5,343 nt of DNA. Source: a virus. The translations under genes and the position numbers were made by a program. The notes under the pieces were generated by a model. It was not told the origin of the DNA. It ran no database searches and saw only the letters and a program-made list of their open reading frames with translations. The stretch lies in IMG/VR virus record IMGVR_UViG_3300030397_000035. The stretch is one strand, 5' to 3'. Shown here piece by piece: positions 124 to 5,343 of the stretch (position 1 is its first letter; every line of letters begins with the position of its first letter).

Positions 124-298
124 TGAGAGATACGATTCCCATTATGTACCAAGATGCAGCGTATGCGGAGGATATAAGGAGGGACTATTTGTACACTGGT
201 TTTTTACCGGATTGTATTGCCGAGCATGTATACAGTACAAGTTGTATGGTGATTTCCGGACGATTGAAAATATTAACGAAGGAGTAAGAAATGGTTAA
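59..298 (+). CDS. Hypothetical 79-aa protein with a CxxC-N17-CxxC zinc-ribbon-like motif
   Basis: ATG at 59 is preceded by GGAG at 46-49 (9-nt spacer). Cysteines fall at residues 33, 36, 54 and 57 (CSVC...CRAC, nt 155-229). The start overlaps the VP4 3' end by 43 nt in a different frame. The stop TAA 296-298 overlaps the next gene's ATG at 291. It sits on the same strand and in the same packing pattern as the core genes. I recognise no family. Confidence 0.6.
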   Translation: MQEGANRFTRKDSVGTVWDVYDERYDSHYVPRCSVCGGYKEGLFVHWFFTGLYCRACIQYKLYGDFRTIENINEGVRNG

Positions 299-581
299 GC
301 CTATGTATGCTATTTATGATTCAGTTAGTTGTGTATATGATCGCCCGTTTCCAGCGATGAATGATCAAGATGCTATTAGAAGTTTTACTAGTGTAGCGAT
401 GAATAAAGACACGGTTATTGGACAGCATCCAGAACATTTTAAATTGTTTAGAATTGGTAAATGGAATGATGCAGAAGGGAAGTTGTTTGGTGAGGGACCG
501 CATCATATTGCGTCCGCTCATGAGATAGTCTCTAAAGTTGTTGCGCTTGAGTCGGATACGGCCGTTGGGGGTACTGCTTAA
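291..581 (+). CDS. VP5: VP5-like small non-structural protein of gokushoviruses (96 aa)
   Basis: GAAGGAG at 278-284 lies 6 nt upstream of ATG 291. The N-terminal pattern MYAIYDSVSCVYDRPFPAMNDQDAIRSF...HPEHFKLFRIGKWND matches my recollection of the conserved small protein encoded just upstream of VP1 in gokushoviruses. The position immediately 5' of VP1 fits (TAA 579-581 is followed directly by the VP1 ATG at 582). Confidence 0.7.
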   Translation: MVKPMYAIYDSVSCVYDRPFPAMNDQDAIRSFTSVAMNKDTVIGQHPEHFKLFRIGKWNDAEGKLFGEGPHHIASAHEIVSKVVALESDTAVGGTA

Positions 582-2165: not shown

Positions 2166-2797
2166 TGTCTCTTGAAGCGTTTGTAACAGGTGGTTTGGGT
2201 AGCATCTTTTCTGGTCTAGGCCAGCATAGTGCTAATAAAACTAATGTTAAACTAATGAGGGAGGCTAATGCTTTTACTGAAAGGATGTCGAATACTGCTG
2301 TACAGCGTAGGATGGCTGACTTGGAAGCTGCTGGAATTAATCCTATACTCGCTGGTAAGTTTGATGCTTCTACTCCTGCTAGTGCTCTTGCTACCGTCGG
2401 TAATGTCGGCGAAGCTGCTGTGGCTGGTGCACAAGGAGGCATGACGGCTGGTGTAGCTGGTGCTAGTTTGGGGCCTACATTGGATCAAATTGGTGCTCGG
2501 GCTGATTTAAGTCGAAGGCAGACGGAAGCGTTAGGATTGGTGGCTGAAGCATCTAGTAACGCCGGTGCTTTTCTGAAAACATTGCTCGAAAAGATTCAGA
2601 GTACAGATTTTACGTCTCTGGATATCGAGAATATGTTGGAGTTTTTCAAGGCAGATATGAAAGACACAGCACGAAGTTTAATGGAAAGTATCGCAGAGGG
2701 TATACATAAGCGTTTTGATCAAGTGAGCGATGATATAGCCAATTGGTATTATGATTCCGACGGTAATCGTCGAAGAAATAGAGAAGGAAACTATTAA
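2165..2797 (+). CDS. VP2: Minor capsid / DNA pilot protein VP2, 210 aa
   Basis: There is a TAATG overlap with the VP1 stop (2163-2167). It carries the conserved gokushovirus VP2 signature [23 protein letters not shown], followed by a Gly/Ala-rich segment and a helical C-terminus. It is positioned between VP1 and VP3. Confidence 0.88.
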
Positions 2798-3273
2798 TGA
2801 GTATGCTTGGAACTAGGCAGCCTACTGCTGAAGATTATAAGAAAACGAGAATGACGAAACAGTCATTTAAAGATAGTACAGATATTAATAAGATACTAAA
2901 GAAGGCGCAGACTAAGGGAACTGTGGCCCATTTGCAGAAGTATCCTGCAATGGTATACGGAGAGTTTACAGGGCAAGATTTGCAAGAGTCGTTGGCACTA
3001 ATAAATAAAGCTAATGAAATTTTTGCAGAGGCGCCTAGTGAGATTCGGAGAGAGTTCGATAATGATGCGTTGAAGTTTGCGGCATTTGCGAGTGATCCGG
3101 CTAATATTGATAGATTGCCGGAGTTGTTGCCGAAGATTGCTGAACCGGGGTCATATTTCCCGAACCCGGTGAAGCGATCGGCAGTGGAGCCGGTGAGTCC
3201 TCAACCGGCTCCGGAGGGTGGCGATGCACCCTCTGGGACTGACGGAGGTGTCAGTCCCCCAGAGAGTGTCTAG
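2797..3273 (+). CDS. VP3: Internal scaffolding protein VP3, 158 aa, with a Pro/Gly/Ser-rich C-terminal tail
   Basis: There is a TAATG overlap with the VP2 stop (2795-2799). The motifs MTKQSFKDSTDINKILKK, YGEFTG and EIRREFDNDALKFAAFASDPAN resemble gokushovirus VP3. The last ~30 residues (SAVEPVSPQPAPEGGDAPSGTDGGVSPPESV) are low complexity and are encoded by a run of DNA hairpins. Confidence 0.85.
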   Translation: MSMLGTRQPTAEDYKKTRMTKQSFKDSTDINKILKKAQTKGTVAHLQKYPAMVYGEFTGQDLQESLALINKANEIFAEAPSEIRREFDNDALKFAAFASDPANIDRLPELLPKIAEPGSYFPNPVKRSAVEPVSPQPAPEGGDAPSGTDGGVSPPESV

Positions 3274-3287
3274 TAGGCTCTCTGGGG
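3187..3287 (+). other. Four consecutive perfect stem-loops spanning the VP3 3' end and its stop codon
   Basis: Inverted repeats verified by hand. GAGCCGGT 3187-3194 pairs with ACCGGCTC 3204-3211 (8 bp). GAGGGTG 3214-3220 pairs with CACCCTC 3227-3233 (7 bp). GGGACTGAC 3235-3243 pairs with GTCAGTCCC 3250-3258 (9 bp). CCCCAGAGAG 3257-3266 pairs with CTCTCTGGGG 3278-3287 (10 bp), and the loop of this last one contains the VP3 TAG at 3271-3273. A weaker 6-bp pair lies at 3144-3149 / 3165-3170. Confidence 0.85.
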
Positions 3288-3322
3288 CCCGCCCTGGCTA
3301 ACGCTAGGGCGGGCTTTTTTTT
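3287..3322 (+). terminator. Rho-independent terminator 1
   Basis: GCCCGCCCT 3287-3295 pairs perfectly with AGGGCGGGC 3306-3314. The stem can extend by 3 more pairs to a TAAC loop. It is followed immediately by eight T residues (3315-3322). Confidence 0.85.
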
Positions 3323-3328
3323 GGTACG

Positions 3329-3356
3329 CGCGCGGTAACTTTCCCGCGCGTTTTTT
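3329..3356 (+). terminator. Rho-independent terminator 2 (in tandem with terminator 1)
   Basis: CGCGCGG 3329-3335 pairs with CCGCGCG 3344-3350 (7 bp, all G/C, 8-nt loop). It is followed by six T residues (3351-3356). Confidence 0.75.
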
Positions 3357-3387
3357 GCATGTGCTACGCGAAGGTTTAGCAAGAAGG

Positions 3388-3430
3388 AATGCAAGGTCCG
3401 TGCCAATATTGGCCTTGCATTTTCGTTTTT
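3388..3430 (+). promoter_or_regulatory. Stem-loop enclosing a 12-bp perfect palindrome, followed by a T-rich tract (a third terminator-like element or an operator)
   Basis: AATGCAAGG 3388-3396 pairs with CCTTGCATT 3413-3421 (9 bp). The palindrome GCCAATATTGGC occupies 3402-3413 inside and overlapping the stem. TTTCGTTTTT follows at 3421-3430. Confidence 0.5.
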
Positions 3431-3443
3431 CGTATGGTTTAAT
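3415..3443 (+). promoter_or_regulatory. Candidate sigma70-type promoter for the accessory cassette (TTGCAT-N17-TTTAAT)
   Basis: TTGCAT at 3415-3420 and TTTAAT at 3438-3443 are separated by a 17-nt spacer. The pair lies about 29 nt upstream of the strong SD/ATG at 3461-3474. Both hexamers are imperfect, and the alternative -10 boxes TAATAT and TATATT overlap at 3440-3448. Confidence 0.3.
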
Positions 3444-3471
3444 ATATTTGCGTTAACAAAAGGAGGACGCT

Positions 3472-3642
3472 ATGAAAAACCATGATCTATGGGTTGAAGA
3501 TTGGAAACTACACGTAAGGCAGTTACGCGATGTCTTTTATGGCGCTAACTTTTCTGCCGAAGAATGGAAGGAATTTCTAAGCGAGATGGACGATATTATC
3601 GAAGCTGCCCACTCTAATGCGGAGGAATGGAATCGTGAATGA
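3472..3642 (+). CDS. Hypothetical 56-aa acidic, Trp-rich protein (not in the supplied ORF track)
   Basis: Hand translation gives MKNHDLWVEDWKLHVRQLRDVFYGANFSAEEWKEFLSEMDDIIEAAHSNAEEWNRE, ending at TGA 3640-3642. AGGAGG at 3461-3466 lies 5 nt before ATG 3472, the best SD in the window. It is the first ORF after the terminators. It has 14 acidic and 6 basic residues and 4 Trp. Its stop overlaps the likely GTG start of the next ORF (GTGAATGA). Confidence 0.7.
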   Translation: MKNHDLWVEDWKLHVRQLRDVFYGANFSAEEWKEFLSEMDDIIEAAHSNAEEWNRE

Positions 3643-3838
3643 TGCACTTTTGAGTTTGATTGAAGCGGAGCAGCGTAAAGCCGACAGGCGGCGCGCTGCT
3701 ATTGAAGCGACTAAGTTGGAGATAGAACTAATTGGTGATAGTGTGAAACTGCGCGGTAAGCTGCAAAGGCAGGAAGCGGCCTTGCAGCAAAGTTTGGATA
3801 ATTTGGAGAAGTTGAACCGCGCAGGTAAGAAGAAGTAA
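3617..3838 (+). CDS. Hypothetical basic coiled-coil protein (73 aa from ATG 3617, more likely 67 aa from GTG 3635)
   Basis: The ORF track gives ATG 3617, but there is no SD upstream of it. GGAGG at 3621-3625 lies 9 nt before an in-frame GTG at 3635, which overlaps the upstream stop. The sequence is Leu/Glu/Lys/Arg/Gln-rich with heptad-like spacing and a KKK C-terminus (15 basic and 11 acidic residues in the 67-aa form). I recognise no family. Confidence 0.6.
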   Translation: MRRNGIVNDALLSLIEAEQRKADRRRAAIEATKLEIELIGDSVKLRGKLQRQEAALQQSLDNLEKLNRAGKKK

Positions 3839-4063
3839 ATGTATTACAGGGTCGGGGGAAACCCCGACCCTGTGTTAAAGTGGCCGCTGCGCGGCCTGTG
3901 GAGTCGCCTAAAGGCGACCCTCTTCAGGCGCCAGCGCGAAAAGGAGTCGCGCCTACGCTGCGCTACGGCGCGACGATTGCCTATTGCTTGGCTTTGGAGG
4001 GTCTATGAAGATTTTGGTAATATTGTCCGTACCCTTTTTTCTAAACGGATGCGGTGCGTTTAG
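3839..4063 (+). CDS. Questionable 74-aa Arg/Trp-rich ORF running through the hairpin array
   Basis: In its favour, the ATG at 3839 directly abuts the preceding TAA (TAAATG), which fits the coupling pattern seen elsewhere. Against it, there is no SD and the third codon positions are G/C-rich, unlike the T-ending codons of the other genes. The R/W/L-rich composition is typical of a chance ORF in GC-rich palindromic DNA. It also overlaps the better-supported 4005-4202 ORF by 59 nt. Confidence 0.2.
   Translation: MYYRVGGNPDPVLKWPLRGLWSRLKATLFRRQREKESRLRCATARRLPIAWLWRVYEDFGNIVRTLFSKRMRCV
3846..3873 (+). other. Perfect 12-bp stem with a GAAA tetraloop immediately after the coiled-coil ORF
   Basis: ACAGGGTCGGGG 3846-3857 pairs with CCCCGACCCTGT 3862-3873, and the loop is GAAA (3858-3861). 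It starts 8 nt after the TAA at 3836-3838. No T-run follows, so it is not a canonical intrinsic terminator. Confidence 0.85.
3882..3974 (+). repeat. GC-rich array of three further stem-loops, two of them sharing a GGAGTCGC arm
   Basis: GGCCGC 3882-3887 pairs with GCGGCC 3891-3896. GTCGCC 3903-3908 pairs with GGCGAC 3913-3918 (TAAA loop). GTCGCGCC 3946-3953 pairs with GGCGCGAC 3967-3974 (13-nt loop). The direct repeat GGAGTCGC occurs at 3900-3907 and 3943-3950. The region is visibly more GC-rich than the rest of the genome. Confidence 0.75.
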
Positions 4064-4202
4064 TGCTACTAACTTGCGCTGCGGTACGGACGGCGATAGT
4101 AGTTATGTTGAAATTATTTCTGCTCCGCAGAGTGTTTCGGCTAATGTTCGGGCTATGTCCGATTTGTGTGCGTTTGCTTATGAAGGAGATAACGATGGCT
4201 AG
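4005..4202 (+). CDS. Small secreted protein or putative lipoprotein, 65 aa (signal peptide MKILVILSVPFFLNG followed by Cys16)
   Basis: GGAGG at 3996-4000 lies 4 nt before ATG 4005, so I prefer this start to the TTG at 3984 given in the track. The N-terminus has one Lys, then a hydrophobic stretch, then L-N-G-C, which resembles a lipobox although Asn at -2 is non-canonical. The mature part is ~50 aa with two more Cys (26 and 55) and an acidic C-terminus. The T-ending codon usage matches the core genes. The stop TAG 4200-4202 overlaps the VP8 start (ATGGCTAG). Confidence 0.6.
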   Translation: MKILVILSVPFFLNGCGAFSATNLRCGTDGDSSYVEIISAPQSVSANVRAMSDLCAFAYEGDNDG

Positions 4203-4314
4203 ACGTAGTAAATTATCTTACGGTGGTTCTAAGCGTTTGTTTACGGCTACGGCTTCTAAAACTAATAGTATGAATGTGAAGCCTCGGCCGATGCGTGGCG
4301 GTATTCGTTTGTAG
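4195..4314 (+). CDS. VP8: Small basic DNA-binding/packaging protein (VP8, phiX174 J-protein analogue), 39 aa
   Basis: GAAGGAG at 4182-4188 lies 6 nt before ATG 4195. The product is MARRSKLSYGGSKRLFTATASKTNSMNVKPRPMRGGIRL, with 10 of 39 residues K/R and no D/E. The C-terminal PMRGGIRL is as I recall for gokushovirus ORF8 proteins. It lies immediately upstream of VP4. The track's 86-aa version (GTG 4054) has no SD. Confidence 0.8.
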   Translation: MARRSKLSYGGSKRLFTATASKTNSMNVKPRPMRGGIRL

Positions 4315-5321
4315 TGGGATGCGACAGTCCATTAAAAGGATGGAAGGATCGGGATACTGGCGGTTTGACGTTTGATAGGAGAAATTGTAGTGAAAAAATG
4401 GAAGTTGCTTGCGGTCAGTGTCTCGGTTGTCGTTTGGATTATTGTCGTATGTGGGCGATGCGAATTACCCACGAAGCCAGCTTGCATGAATATAAAGGAG
4501 GTAATTGCTTTATTACTCTGACGTATCGTGATGCTGATTTTTGCGATGAAGAGCAACTGGCAAAAGAGTTATATGTGCCGGATGATTGGAGTTTAAATAA
4601 ACGGCATTTCCAACTATTTATGAAGCGTTTGCGGAAAGCGTTTCCGAAGAGGGAGATTAGGTACTTTTATGCCGGTGAATACGGTCGGTGTTGCAGGCAT
4701 GGCATTGACGTACAGCGGGTTGGCTGTCCTCTCTGTAACGTGGGGCGTCCCCATTTTCATGCTTGTCTTTTTAATCATAGTTTTACTGATTTAGAGCCAT
4801 ATAGTTCCGATGGAGGAGTTTTACGTTATACTAGTCCGACTCTGGAGAAAATATGGGGATATGGTTTCGTTGACGTTGGCGATCTTACTTTTGCTTCTGC
4901 TAGTTATGTTGCAGGTTATGTACTAAAGAAGGTACGTGGGCCTGTAGCTGATGACCATTATCAAGCTTACGATATGGATGGAGAAATTACTTTTTTGGAA
5001 CCGGAGTTTGTCGGTATGAGTCGCGGTAATGCTGCTTACAAAGGGCAGAAGTGCGGTATCGGTGCCGGATGGTTTGAGAAGTATAAAGACGACTGTTTCC
5101 CAAGTGATGAGATTCCTATTCCGGGTGTCGGGGTTATGAAGGGCGTTCCGCGTTATTATGATGAAATGCTAAAAGATTATGACGAGGAGTTGTATTTAAA
5201 GATAAAGGAGTCTAGAACTCAATTTAGAAAAGAGAATGCAGAGGAATATACGCCGGGCAGATTGTGGAGTAAACACTTATGCAAGAAGGCGCGAACAGAT
5301 TTACGCGAAAGGACTCTGTAG
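4314..5321 (+). CDS. VP4: Replication initiation protein VP4 (HUH rolling-circle endonuclease, phiX174 A-protein family), 335 aa
   Basis: The GTG start at 4314 overlaps the VP8 TAG (TAGTG). The N-terminal GCDSPLKGW and CGQCLGCRLDY are typical of Microviridae Rep proteins. Motif I is FITLTY, the HUH motif is HFHACLF (nt 4752-4760), and the two-tyrosine motif is SYVAGYVLKK (Tyr198 and Tyr202, nt 4905-4919). A Cys-rich insertion lies between GEYG and RPHFH. Confidence 0.92.
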   Translation: MGCDSPLKGWKDRDTGGLTFDRRNCSEKMEVACGQCLGCRLDYCRMWAMRITHEASLHEYKGGNCFITLTYRDADFCDEEQLAKELYVPDDWSLNKRHFQLFMKRLRKAFPKREIRYFYAGEYGRCCRHGIDVQRVGCPLCNVGRPHFHACLFNHSFTDLEPYSSDGGVLRYTSPTLEKIWGYGFVDVGDLTFASASYVAGYVLKKVRGPVADDHYQAYDMDGEITFLEPEFVGMSRGNAAYKGQKCGIGAGWFEKYKDDCFPSDEIPIPGVGVMKGVPRYYDEMLKDYDEELYLKIKESRTQFRKENAEEYTPGRLWSKHLCKKARTDLRERTL

Positions 5322-5343
5322 GAACTGTATGGGATGTTTATGA
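5221..5343. repeat. Right copy of the 123-nt terminal redundancy (identical to 1-123)
   Basis: Identical to 1-123. It contains the last 101 nt of VP4 and the first 65 nt of the 79-aa ORF (ATG at 5279, equivalent to 59). Confidence 0.97.

Follow-up and report, generated by a model that had tools for sequence, protein, structure and literature searches.

The small open reading frame at positions 4005–4202 of the window, the whole 5,343-nucleotide stretch of viral DNA analysed here, is almost certainly a real expressed gene, and its 65-residue product is very probably a true lipoprotein, as judged from family-wide sequence signals. It defines a conserved, previously unannotated lipoprotein family found in microviruses only, and the gene is a dispensable accessory of one marine/sediment gokushovirus lineage. 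As to function, we tentatively favour exclusion or receptor masking, a reading that draws on analogy with other small phage lipoproteins and to which we give a probability of roughly 0.4. The features on which the argument relies are as follows.

3839–4004, plus strand: untranslated GC-rich hairpin spacer directly 5′ of the gene (166 nt; 61% GC).
3996–4001, plus strand: Shine-Dalgarno motif GGAGGG, 3–4 nt 5′ of the ATG, read directly.
4005–4202, plus strand: gene for the lipoprotein precursor (65 codons and a TAG stop), defined by the ORF list, homologues, synteny and purifying selection.
4005–4049, plus strand: predicted signal peptide MKILVILSVPFFLNG, with n-region MK and h-region ILVILSVPFFL.
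4041–4052, plus strand: predicted lipobox L-N-G-C (L13-N14-G15-C16) with Gly at +2; Cys16 (4050–4052) is the predicted lipid-modified residue 1 of the mature protein.
4050–4199, plus strand: mature 50-residue acidic domain CGAFSATNLRCGTDGDSSYVEIISAPQSVSANVRAMSDLCAFAYEGDNDG, which holds the conserved core.
4080–4082, plus strand: codon of Cys26 (mature Cys11), invariant in both alignments, putative disulfide partner.
4167–4169, plus strand: codon of Cys55 (mature Cys40), invariant, putative disulfide partner.
4195–4202, plus strand: ATGGCTAG overlap of the VP8 start (ATG at 4195) with the lipoprotein stop, read directly.
4195–4314, plus strand: gene for a VP8-like small basic protein, the downstream neighbour (phrog_10695, E = 1.6e-13).

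The frame runs from the ATG at 4005 to the TAG at 4200–4202, and its product begins MKILVILSVPFFLNG-CGAF.... Motifs resembling the Shine-Dalgarno sequence are similarly placed ahead of the start codon in several homologues, and VP8-like homologues come after the lipoprotein gene in relatives. The overlap with VP8 is present in one relative (L056) and replaced by gaps in two others (L066 and L069), so it is not universal. The gene has T at a frequency of 0.48 in third codon positions and a CAI-like index of 0.66, in line with the core genes VP1–VP5 (0.62–0.72). An initial annotation had taken the Shine-Dalgarno motif, the codon usage and the VP8 coupling as signs of expression, and every sequence detail that it gave (the ORF, lipobox, Gly at +2, Shine-Dalgarno motif and VP8 overlap) is correct. 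It had also held that conservation of the frames opening at 3839 or 4054, in place of the 4005 frame, would speak against the gene; it is the 4005 frame that relatives conserve. We rejected the ORF at 3839–4063 as a gene, as it has no homologue in any relative and poor codon usage (CAI-like index 0.475), and likewise the ORF at 4054–4194, which is interrupted by stops in 8 of 18 relatives and has an index of 0.53. The spacer ahead of the gene contains inverted repeats, including a perfect 12-bp stem at 3846–3873, and as ssDNA it folds with −47.3 kcal/mol (z = −5.3); an Rfam search of the window gave no match.

The protein has 45 close homologues, with 56–80% identity, and a search of 1.84 billion representatives returned a further 71 clusters at 50% identity, all of 41–172 residues. 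In every member for which the genomic context was read, on contigs of at most 5.8 kb, the gene lies between VP3 and VP8/VP4. Variability by codon position (0.255, 0.197 and 0.55 for positions 1, 2 and 3) and a dN/dS of about 0.2 show that the gene is under purifying selection. Three GenBank genomes (KP087952, MH572405 and MH572455) carry it without annotation, and a separate tblastn matched the lipoprotein in 3 of the 2568 GenBank records that have a VP1 match. A DNA-level search of GenBank phages with 3300–4400 of the window gave just short VP4 matches. We found no cellular homologue; two matches in a single Acetobacteraceae MAG, among 185,579 species genomes scanned, were judged spurious, as no family-like ORF covers either of them.

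The distribution within the lineage is informative. The complete circular genomes KP087954, MH572347 and MH572418 lack the gene, and their VP1 proteins are 62–66% identical to that of the window and sit nested among the carriers in the VP1 tree. In MH572347 (4417 nt) only VP8 lies between VP3 and VP4. Because these three complete sister genomes do without it, the gene is dispensable, and since it is missing in some members of the lineage it does not form part of the gokushovirus core set (VP1–VP5 and VP8). It is also absent from loci L001–L055. In one diverged carrier (L072) the lipoprotein is 53% identical to that of the window, compared with 39% for VP1 and 35% for VP4, and this better preservation than the backbone points to a host-directed, possibly exchangeable module.

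The N-terminus of the window protein consists of a positively charged n-region (MK) and an h-region within the 7–22 residues expected, with a best 8-residue Kyte-Doolittle mean of 2.83. Across the family this part of the protein is variable in sequence and always hydrophobic: in every member that has a scorable N-terminus, the 8-residue mean before the Cys reaches 1.9 or more. The mature part is highly conserved. The lipobox consensus is L-[S/G/A/T]-G-C, or LSGC with one residue per position. Of 115 members, 112 retain its Cys; at position −1, 110 of 111 have Gly, Ala or Ser, and Leu stands at −3 in 75 of 111. At −2, 94 of 111 members have Ser, Gly, Ala or Thr, and just two have Asn. A PROSITE-type core ([LVI][ASTVI][GAS]C, with the Cys at positions 15–35) is passed by 93 of the 105 members with a full N-terminus, and the window protein is among the 12 that fail, for its Asn at −2 alone. 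The initial annotation had flagged this residue as non-canonical. In a family lipobox that otherwise follows the canon it is an infrequent substitution, and its AAC codon is one base from the consensus Ser codon AGC. The broader claim, that a small expressed protein bears a lipoprotein signal, draws strong support from the family-wide Cys, the small residue at −1 and the hydrophobic h-region.

Residue +2 is Gly, Ser or Ala in 109 of 112 members, with Gly in the window protein, and it is never Asp; for this reason the predicted location is the inner leaflet of the outer membrane, by a sorting rule that comes from E. coli, outer-membrane sorting rules varying among taxa. Strong Shine-Dalgarno motifs and the need for a disulfide would be in keeping with a Gram-negative host in which translation starts by the Shine-Dalgarno mechanism.

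The mature domain has seven Asp/Glu residues against two Lys/Arg, a single Pro in 50 residues and an acidic C-terminus (...AYEGDNDG). Its core, L-R-C-G-x-D-G-x-S-S-Y-V-E...C-x-F-x-Y, is highly conserved. The three-Cys pattern is kept in 112 of 115 members, and 111 of 112 have exactly three Cys from the lipobox onward. The second Cys follows the lipobox Cys by 6–13 residues across the family, and a large majority of members have a distance of 29 from Cys26 to Cys55; these two probably form a disulfide. The first conserved strand begins just 6–13 residues past the lipid Cys; such a very short tether favours an envelope-proximal target for the predicted domain. A TonB-box-like reading of the SSYVEVVSAP strand was dropped, as the motif is not kept in distant members.

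Searches of the mature domain against Pfam, PHROG, PADLOC and the PDB gave no match. Scans of Pfam, PHROGs, PADLOC and NCBIfam, which covered the window protein plus 45–70 family members, returned nothing beyond weak sub-threshold lipoprotein signal models, namely the NCBIfam LptM signal model (24 of 45 members) and Pfam LPAM_1 (10 of 70). Mimicry of LptM was considered and set aside: the E-values are 0.0055 at best and mostly 0.03 or weaker, and we ascribe them to the signal peptide plus CG. A sequence-profile search of all PDB chains likewise found nothing. Two AlphaFold2 runs, from alignments of 45 and 70 sequences, gave low-confidence models (pLDDT 66–68) with a β-hairpin (residues 23–39) followed by helices. 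With these models Foldseek gave no match better than E = 0.5 in the PDB or BFVD, a result that says little, because AlphaFold predictions of the phage lipoproteins Llp and Rtp45 are likewise reported to be wrong (PMC9586334, PMC12685063).

Exclusion or receptor masking accommodates these observations best. The precursor would pass through Sec and receive a diacylglyceryl group on Cys16, and cleavage by signal peptidase II would leave a 50-residue acidic domain held to the membrane by a tether of about ten residues. A Cys26–Cys55 disulfide formed in the periplasm would staple the domain, whose target would most likely be an outer-membrane protein contacted from the periplasmic side; a plausible candidate is the receptor that the phage itself uses. 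With this receptor bound, infected cells and lysis debris would no longer adsorb further virions, which is how Llp serves T5 and Rtp45 serves Rtp. Because sister genomes lack the gene, an accessory role of this kind is preferred to that of a sole lysis gene; a function like that of Llp is favoured by these genomes, by the shortness of the tether and by the single disulfide that is probably present. High conservation of the mature domain would be equally compatible with any specific host target. Several observations count against the exclusion reading: similarity to Llp in sequence or fold stops at the signal peptide, the window protein has Asn at −2 of its lipobox, and the llp and rtp45 genes adjoin the genes for their receptor-binding proteins, whereas the lipoprotein gene does not adjoin the capsid/receptor-binding gene.

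The closest competitor, which we hold to be somewhat unlikely, is a periplasmic or outer-membrane accessory with another role, such as exclusion of unrelated phages, inhibition of a periplasmic enzyme or stress sensor, or modulation of vesicles or debris. It draws on the same architecture and the same evidence of dispensability as receptor masking, and the protein has no homology to any characterised family. This is a residual class with nothing specific against it, although the precedents known among phage lipoproteins of this size (about 6 kDa, one disulfide) mask receptors.

A single-gene lysis effector is less likely again. The protein might lyse cells by accumulating in the envelope in the manner of a bacteriocin release protein (BRP), or by jamming essential envelope machinery, for example LptDE, BAM, Lol or a partner of a peptidoglycan synthase; the narrower proposal, that it lyses or kills by acting on LptDE, BAM or Lol from its lipid anchor, we consider improbable. 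A lysis role would close a gap in gokushoviruses, which lack a lysis gene of the φX174 E type and of which only some have peptidases (PMC7062461, PMC9239249). No endolysin, holin or peptidase was found in the window by ORF list, Pfam or PHROG, and strong constraint on the mature domain is expected for a specific host target. Colicin lysis proteins, small lipoproteins able to lyse cells, provide a precedent. However, lysis in this lineage cannot depend on the lipoprotein, because the sister genomes lack it, MH572347 having nothing but VP8 at the locus, and the tblastn count given above (3 of 2568) also speaks against it. Neither Pfam Lysis_col (PF02402) nor Rz1 matched the window protein or 70 family members at E ≤ 1. 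The 50-residue mature part with its probable disulfide also differs from the Cys-free BRPs of about 28–33 residues, and the gene is promoter-proximal and coupled to replication genes. An alternative lysis candidate exists in a hydrophobic +1-frame ORF within VP4, which is present in carriers and non-carriers.

A secreted product that signal peptidase I cleaves and that carries no lipid is very unlikely. The Asn at −2, outside the PROSITE rule, speaks for it; against it stand the near-invariant Cys at +1 and small residue at −1, the odd number of Cys (three), which leaves one unpaired, the lack of a conserved AxA-type site, the restriction of weak sub-threshold matches to lipoprotein signal models, and the single base that separates the Asn codon from that for Ser. 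The suggestion in the initial annotation of an o-spanin, here taken as an Rz1-like o-spanin or a u-spanin that would fuse inner and outer membranes in the last step of lysis, is not supported and is largely refuted already by anatomy, despite the small size, the predicted outer-membrane sorting and an unrelated ORF of u-spanin-like architecture in another gokushovirus (L044): no adjacent or embedded partner has an N-terminal transmembrane segment (the neighbouring ORFs of 56, 73 and 39 residues lack one, and the upstream 56- and 73-residue ORFs are soluble, the second coiled-coil-like), there is no i-spanin, endolysin, holin or Rz1 Pfam match, and the protein has an acidic tail in place of a C-terminal transmembrane segment and is not Pro-rich.

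Microviruses are described as nearly devoid of accessory genes, and most of their numerous small ORFs (about 65 residues) are unassigned (PMC9239249). The expectation that a lysis or exclusion lipoprotein would be new for the Microviridae is consistent with the literature searched. Were receptor masking to prove true, this would be the first exclusion factor of an ssDNA phage, and it could serve as bait for finding the gokushovirus receptor and host. Should the lipoprotein kill instead, a new envelope target would be indicated; an effector on LptDE, BAM or Lol would amount to a 'protein antibiotic' whose target lies in the periplasm close to the outer membrane, and it would account for lysis in at least this gokushovirus lineage.

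Among known systems, the T5 Llp/Cor family (8a60_B, 7qjf) offers the closest likeness. T5 Llp has a mature Cys1 plus a Cys11–Cys58 disulfide in 61 residues (PMC9586334), and its sequence agrees with PDB 8a60_B. The protein described here is likewise a small lipoprotein, of 50 mature residues, with Cys1, Cys11 and a putative Cys11–Cys40 disulfide; in Llp the bond joins Cys11 to a Cys near the C-terminus, and the putative one here would do likewise. Its size and sorting signals agree with those of the Llp/Cor group (about 6–7 kDa mature, no Lol-avoidance residue), and both are accessory genes of lytic phages, with action here predicted at the periplasmic face of the outer membrane. The likeness does not extend to homology: the PDB profile search returned neither 8a60 nor 7qjf, and hhalign comparisons (single-sequence and profile-profile) aligned 16–23 columns with 36–57% probability, covering the signal peptide alone and reaching the second Cys at most. 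The setting also differs, as the phage has a 5.2-kb ssDNA genome and the gene adjoins replication genes rather than a receptor-binding gene.

The lipoprotein Rtp45, of about 6 kDa, has one disulfide and a β-hairpin and binds LptDE; superinfection-exclusion lipoproteins of this kind, from LptD-targeting small siphophages, bind where the periplasm meets the outer membrane and thereby alter the receptor's extracellular loops (PMC12685063). Our protein resembles Rtp45 in being a small lipoprotein with one, here putative, disulfide and a hairpin, which comes from the low-confidence models alone; the PDB profile search gave no match to Rtp45. Colicin lysis or bacteriocin release lipoproteins are also very small and come from small replicons without an endolysin, and could in principle lyse alone, whereas the present protein has a longer mature part with a predicted fold and disulfide, and its gene is dispensable. 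With the λ Rz1 o-spanin and the T1 gp11 u-spanin (PMC6139136) it has the outer-membrane lipoprotein signal in common, and it differs in the partner, transmembrane, Pro and lysis-gene features described above. We know of no envelope-directed Microviridae protein besides φX174 E. That protein is likewise small and envelope-directed, but E is the product of an overprinted gene and sits in the inner membrane with an N-terminal transmembrane domain that is not cleaved off, whereas the gokushovirus protein has a frame of its own and a predicted cleavable lipoprotein signal.

The first 123 nucleotides of the window are repeated at its end (1-123 at 5221-5343), so the window represents a circular genome of 5220 nt, and its gene content according to the ORF list, Pfam and PHROGs is the gokushovirus set. 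The closest GenBank relatives by VP1 show 56-70% identity. Because the VP1 relatives are the 'Eel River basin pequenoviruses', which come from the sediment of a cold methane seep, and Microviridae of the Ciona robusta (sea squirt) gut, the phage can be taken as marine or sedimentary. The following features are relevant to the analysis.

Features of the window
291-581: ORF5/VP5 (Pfam Phage_ORF5)
582-2165: VP1
2165-2797: VP2, pilot protein
2797-3273: VP3, scaffold (Chlamy_scaf)
3284-3322: strong intrinsic terminator directly after VP3, 15-bp stem and T run
3328-3356: second strong terminator in tandem, 8-bp stem and T run
3472-3642: small soluble ORF, 56 aa, acidic, good Shine-Dalgarno
3617-3838: small soluble ORF, 73 aa, coiled-coil-looking, good Shine-Dalgarno
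3839-4004: untranslated spacer, 166 nt, 61% GC, four or five hairpins
3996-4001: Shine-Dalgarno GGAGGG
4005-4202: lipoprotein gene, ATG 4005 to TAG 4200-4202, product beginning MKILVILSVPFFLNG-CGAF...
4041-4052: lipobox L-N-G-C, Gly at +2
4195-4314: VP8-like basic protein, 39 aa (phrog_10695); the overlap of its ATG (4195) with the lipoprotein stop reads ATGGCTAG
from 4314: VP4, replication initiator

The ORF at 4005-4202 is a gene. The initial annotation placed its start, stop, lipobox, Shine-Dalgarno and VP8 overlap correctly, and its appeal to codon usage also holds, as this matches the core genes: T3 is 0.48 and the CAI-like index 0.66, against 0.62-0.72 in VP1-VP5, 0.475 in the overlapping 3839-4063 ORF and 0.53 in the 4054 frame upstream of VP8. 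Among 5.8 billion protein clusters searched there were 45 homologues (56-80% identity), all on contigs of at most 5.8 kb, and an HMM run exhaustively against 1.84 billion representatives gave 71 clusters at 50% identity, each of 41-172 aa, with no cellular homologue. Two matches in a single MAG, from a scan of 185,579 species genomes, were rejected, as neither is covered by a family-like ORF. The proposed survey of microviruses for similar ORFs near VP8 was productive: in every context read, comprising 18 distinct loci and the most distant member tested (P0112), the gene lies between VP3 and VP8/VP4 on the same strand. Across the 18 loci, variability is 0.55 at third codon positions against 0.255 at first and 0.197 at second, and dN/dS is ~0.2 for unsaturated pairs. 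Conservation of the 3839 or 4054 frame in place of this one had been named as a refuting outcome. Both are interrupted by stop codons in relatives, and no homologue of the 3839 ORF was found in any relative examined, so neither takes the place of the 4005 frame; VP8 homology in relatives starts only at VP8's own ATG. The window ORF is the founding member, in the window, of a conserved gokushovirus lipoprotein family, so far unannotated and without cellular relatives.

The evidence that the product is a lipoprotein is stronger from the family than from the window's own sequence. Three Cys residues stand in fixed register in 112 of the 115 family members, the first ending a hydrophobic N-terminal stretch, the second 6-13 residues further on and the third ~29 after that; the exceptions are two N-terminally truncated calls and P0047, which lacks the lipobox Cys. 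Position -1 is Gly, Ala or Ser in 110/111 members, -2 is Ser, Gly, Ala or Thr in 94/111 and -3 is Leu in 75/111, the most frequent lipoboxes being LSGC, LGGC, LAGC and LTGC. A PROSITE-type lipobox core is passed by 93 of the 105 members with a full N-terminus. The window protein falls outside it solely because of Asn at -2, a residue rightly flagged earlier as non-canonical and found in only two members; a single base change would turn its codon, AAC, into AGC for the consensus Ser. In the family alignment, the sequence before the lipobox Cys is variable yet always hydrophobic and everything after it is highly conserved, a pattern typical of signal sequences that are cleaved off. Exactly three Cys occur from the lipobox onward in 111/112 members. 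One Cys is thereby left without a partner, which is what a lipid-modified Cys16 and a periplasmic disulfide between Cys26 and Cys55 would give. All matches to the NCBIfam and Pfam libraries were sub-threshold, and most concerned lipoprotein models. The two most frequent in NCBIfam were the LptM signal model (24/45 members) and YceK/YidQ, and the two most frequent in Pfam were LPAM_1 (10/70) and LptM_cons (7/70). Taken together, these patterns predict lipidation of the protein and make the lipoprotein reading very probable.

The mature protein has 50 residues and is acidic (7 D/E against 2 K/R), with a single Pro and a variable acidic tail at its end. Its conserved core reads L-R-C-G-x-D-G-x-S-S-Y-V-E ... 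R-x-x-x-x-L-C-x-F-x-Y. Two AlphaFold2 runs concur on a β-hairpin at 23-39 followed by helical segments, with pLDDT of only 66-68. The first strand lies only 6-13 residues beyond the lipid anchor, so the domain must act within a few nanometres of its membrane. Residue +2 is Ser, Gly or Ala in 109/112 members and Asp in none, which under the enterobacterial Lol rule predicts sorting to the outer membrane; this assignment is provisional, as that rule is not universal.

The main transcription unit ends at the tandem terminators after VP3. The 73-aa ORF beyond them has homologues in two relatives (L068 and L071), and coiled-coil-looking ORFs occupy its position in KP087954 and MH572418, the same by place and look only. 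The spacer contains a perfect 12-bp stem with a GAAA loop (3846-3873), and its ssDNA fold reaches -47.3 kcal/mol (z = -5.3). Priming of the complementary strand, attenuation and RNA stabilisation are all possible roles of the spacer, and the upstream stop-to-stop stretches of L068 and of a further relative, L069, hint at similar GC-rich sequence before the gene. After the spacer come the lipoprotein gene, VP8 and VP4, an order that puts the lipoprotein gene at the promoter-proximal, replication end of the genome; a simple scan of 3200-4350 found no sigma-70 consensus promoter. The initial annotation had also proposed coupling to VP8. The overlap is present in the window and in one relative (L056); in other relatives a gap separates the two genes, which means that translational coupling does not characterise the family.

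Three complete, circular genomes, KP087954, MH572347 and MH572418, gave no family-HMM match even at E <= 10, although their VP1 is 62-66% identical to that of the window, as close as in most carriers of the gene. In MH572347, VP8 stands alone between VP3 and VP4. A neighbour-joining tree of VP1, built without support values, nests these non-carriers within the carrier clade. VP1 matched 2568 GenBank records, and a separate tblastn with the lipoprotein matched only three of them, in which the region is unannotated: KP087952.1 (4878-5063), MH572405.1 (3080-3268) and MH572455.1 (2994-3182). The gene was found in 0 of 55 more distant gokushovirus loci. In IMGVR_UViG_3300030412_000105 (3001-3198), the lipoprotein is 53% identical to that of the window, VP1 39% and VP4 35%. 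These identities suggest a gene either more conserved than the virus backbones or moving between them, and hint at exchange between divergent microvirus backbones.

Several other hydrophobic ORFs were seen. A 49-aa ORF overprinted in the +1 frame inside VP4 (4372-4521) has a transmembrane-like segment, KKWKLLAVSVSVVVWIIVVCG. An open +1 ORF occupies the equivalent position in 12 of 15 relatives, carriers and non-carriers alike, and at that place the third-position entropy of VP4 is reduced (1.40 against 1.71, over only 7 columns); the 49-aa ORF may represent an overprinted gene like E or just reflect the conserved VP4 sequence. Further off-frame ORFs lie inside VP4 and VP2 (4669-4794, 4810-4926 and 2268-2444), and of these, the +1 ORF at VP4 residue ~119 is seen again in roughly half the relatives. 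Separately, IMGVR_UViG_3300047502_000001 has a 98-aa ORF between VP1 and VP2 (652-948, +) whose lipobox (...LLIVVSGC) is canonical and whose C-terminal hydrophobic segment precedes RKLRS. This is the architecture of a unimolecular spanin; the ORF is unrelated to the lipoprotein family, its sole match being a weak one to phrog_8599.

As to function, a module that is dispensable, directed at the host and under strong constraint is more readily explained by exclusion or receptor masking than as the only gene for lysis, and we give the former a probability of about 0.4. Exclusion factors also keep progeny from adsorbing to debris (PMC12685063). We would expect such protection to benefit a phage in which contact triggers irreversible DNA ejection. 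Some other accessory role in the envelope is rather less probable. A lysis effector is attractive because gokushoviruses have no E-type lysis gene, as the initial annotation stated and the literature agrees, and peptidases in only some of them (PMC7062461, PMC9239249). However, the distribution of the gene argues against this, as it is missing from the complete close relatives KP087954, MH572347 and MH572418, and we consider it unlikely. A secreted, non-lipidated peptide is a slim prospect, and a spanin can be set aside on anatomy: there is no TM-bearing partner, C-terminal TM segment or endolysin, and the protein is not Pro-rich. The earlier lipoprotein reading finds good support in the family lipobox and the three Cys, and as to its two functional proposals the evidence leans to an accessory role similar to that of Llp rather than to a lysis gene on which the phage depends.

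Our literature searches found no paper connecting microviruses with lipoproteins. The mature domain had no match in Pfam, PHROGs or PADLOC, nor one by profile search among the sequences of all PDB chains, and Foldseek against PDB and BFVD returned no match better than E = 0.5 with models of pLDDT 66-68. Colicin-lysis lipoproteins are shorter and show no profile match. By architecture, the closest counterparts are lipoproteins with which tailed phages exclude superinfection by masking a receptor. In its mature form, the lipoprotein Llp of T5 has 61 residues and a Cys11-Cys58 disulfide (PMC9586334; sequence checked against PDB 8a60_B), and Rtp45 is a ~6 kDa lipoprotein with one disulfide and a β-hairpin that binds LptDE at the periplasmic outer-membrane interface (PMC12685063). 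The window protein resembles this plan, with mature Cys1, Cys11 and Cys40 in 50 residues. In contrast, hhalign against Llp alone, or against an alignment of Llp and its four retrievable homologues, aligns the signal peptide only. By sequence the window protein is outside the Llp family, although its mode of action may be Llp-like. What is new is the occurrence of a known type, the small phage outer-membrane lipoprotein, in ssDNA microviruses, as a new sequence family.
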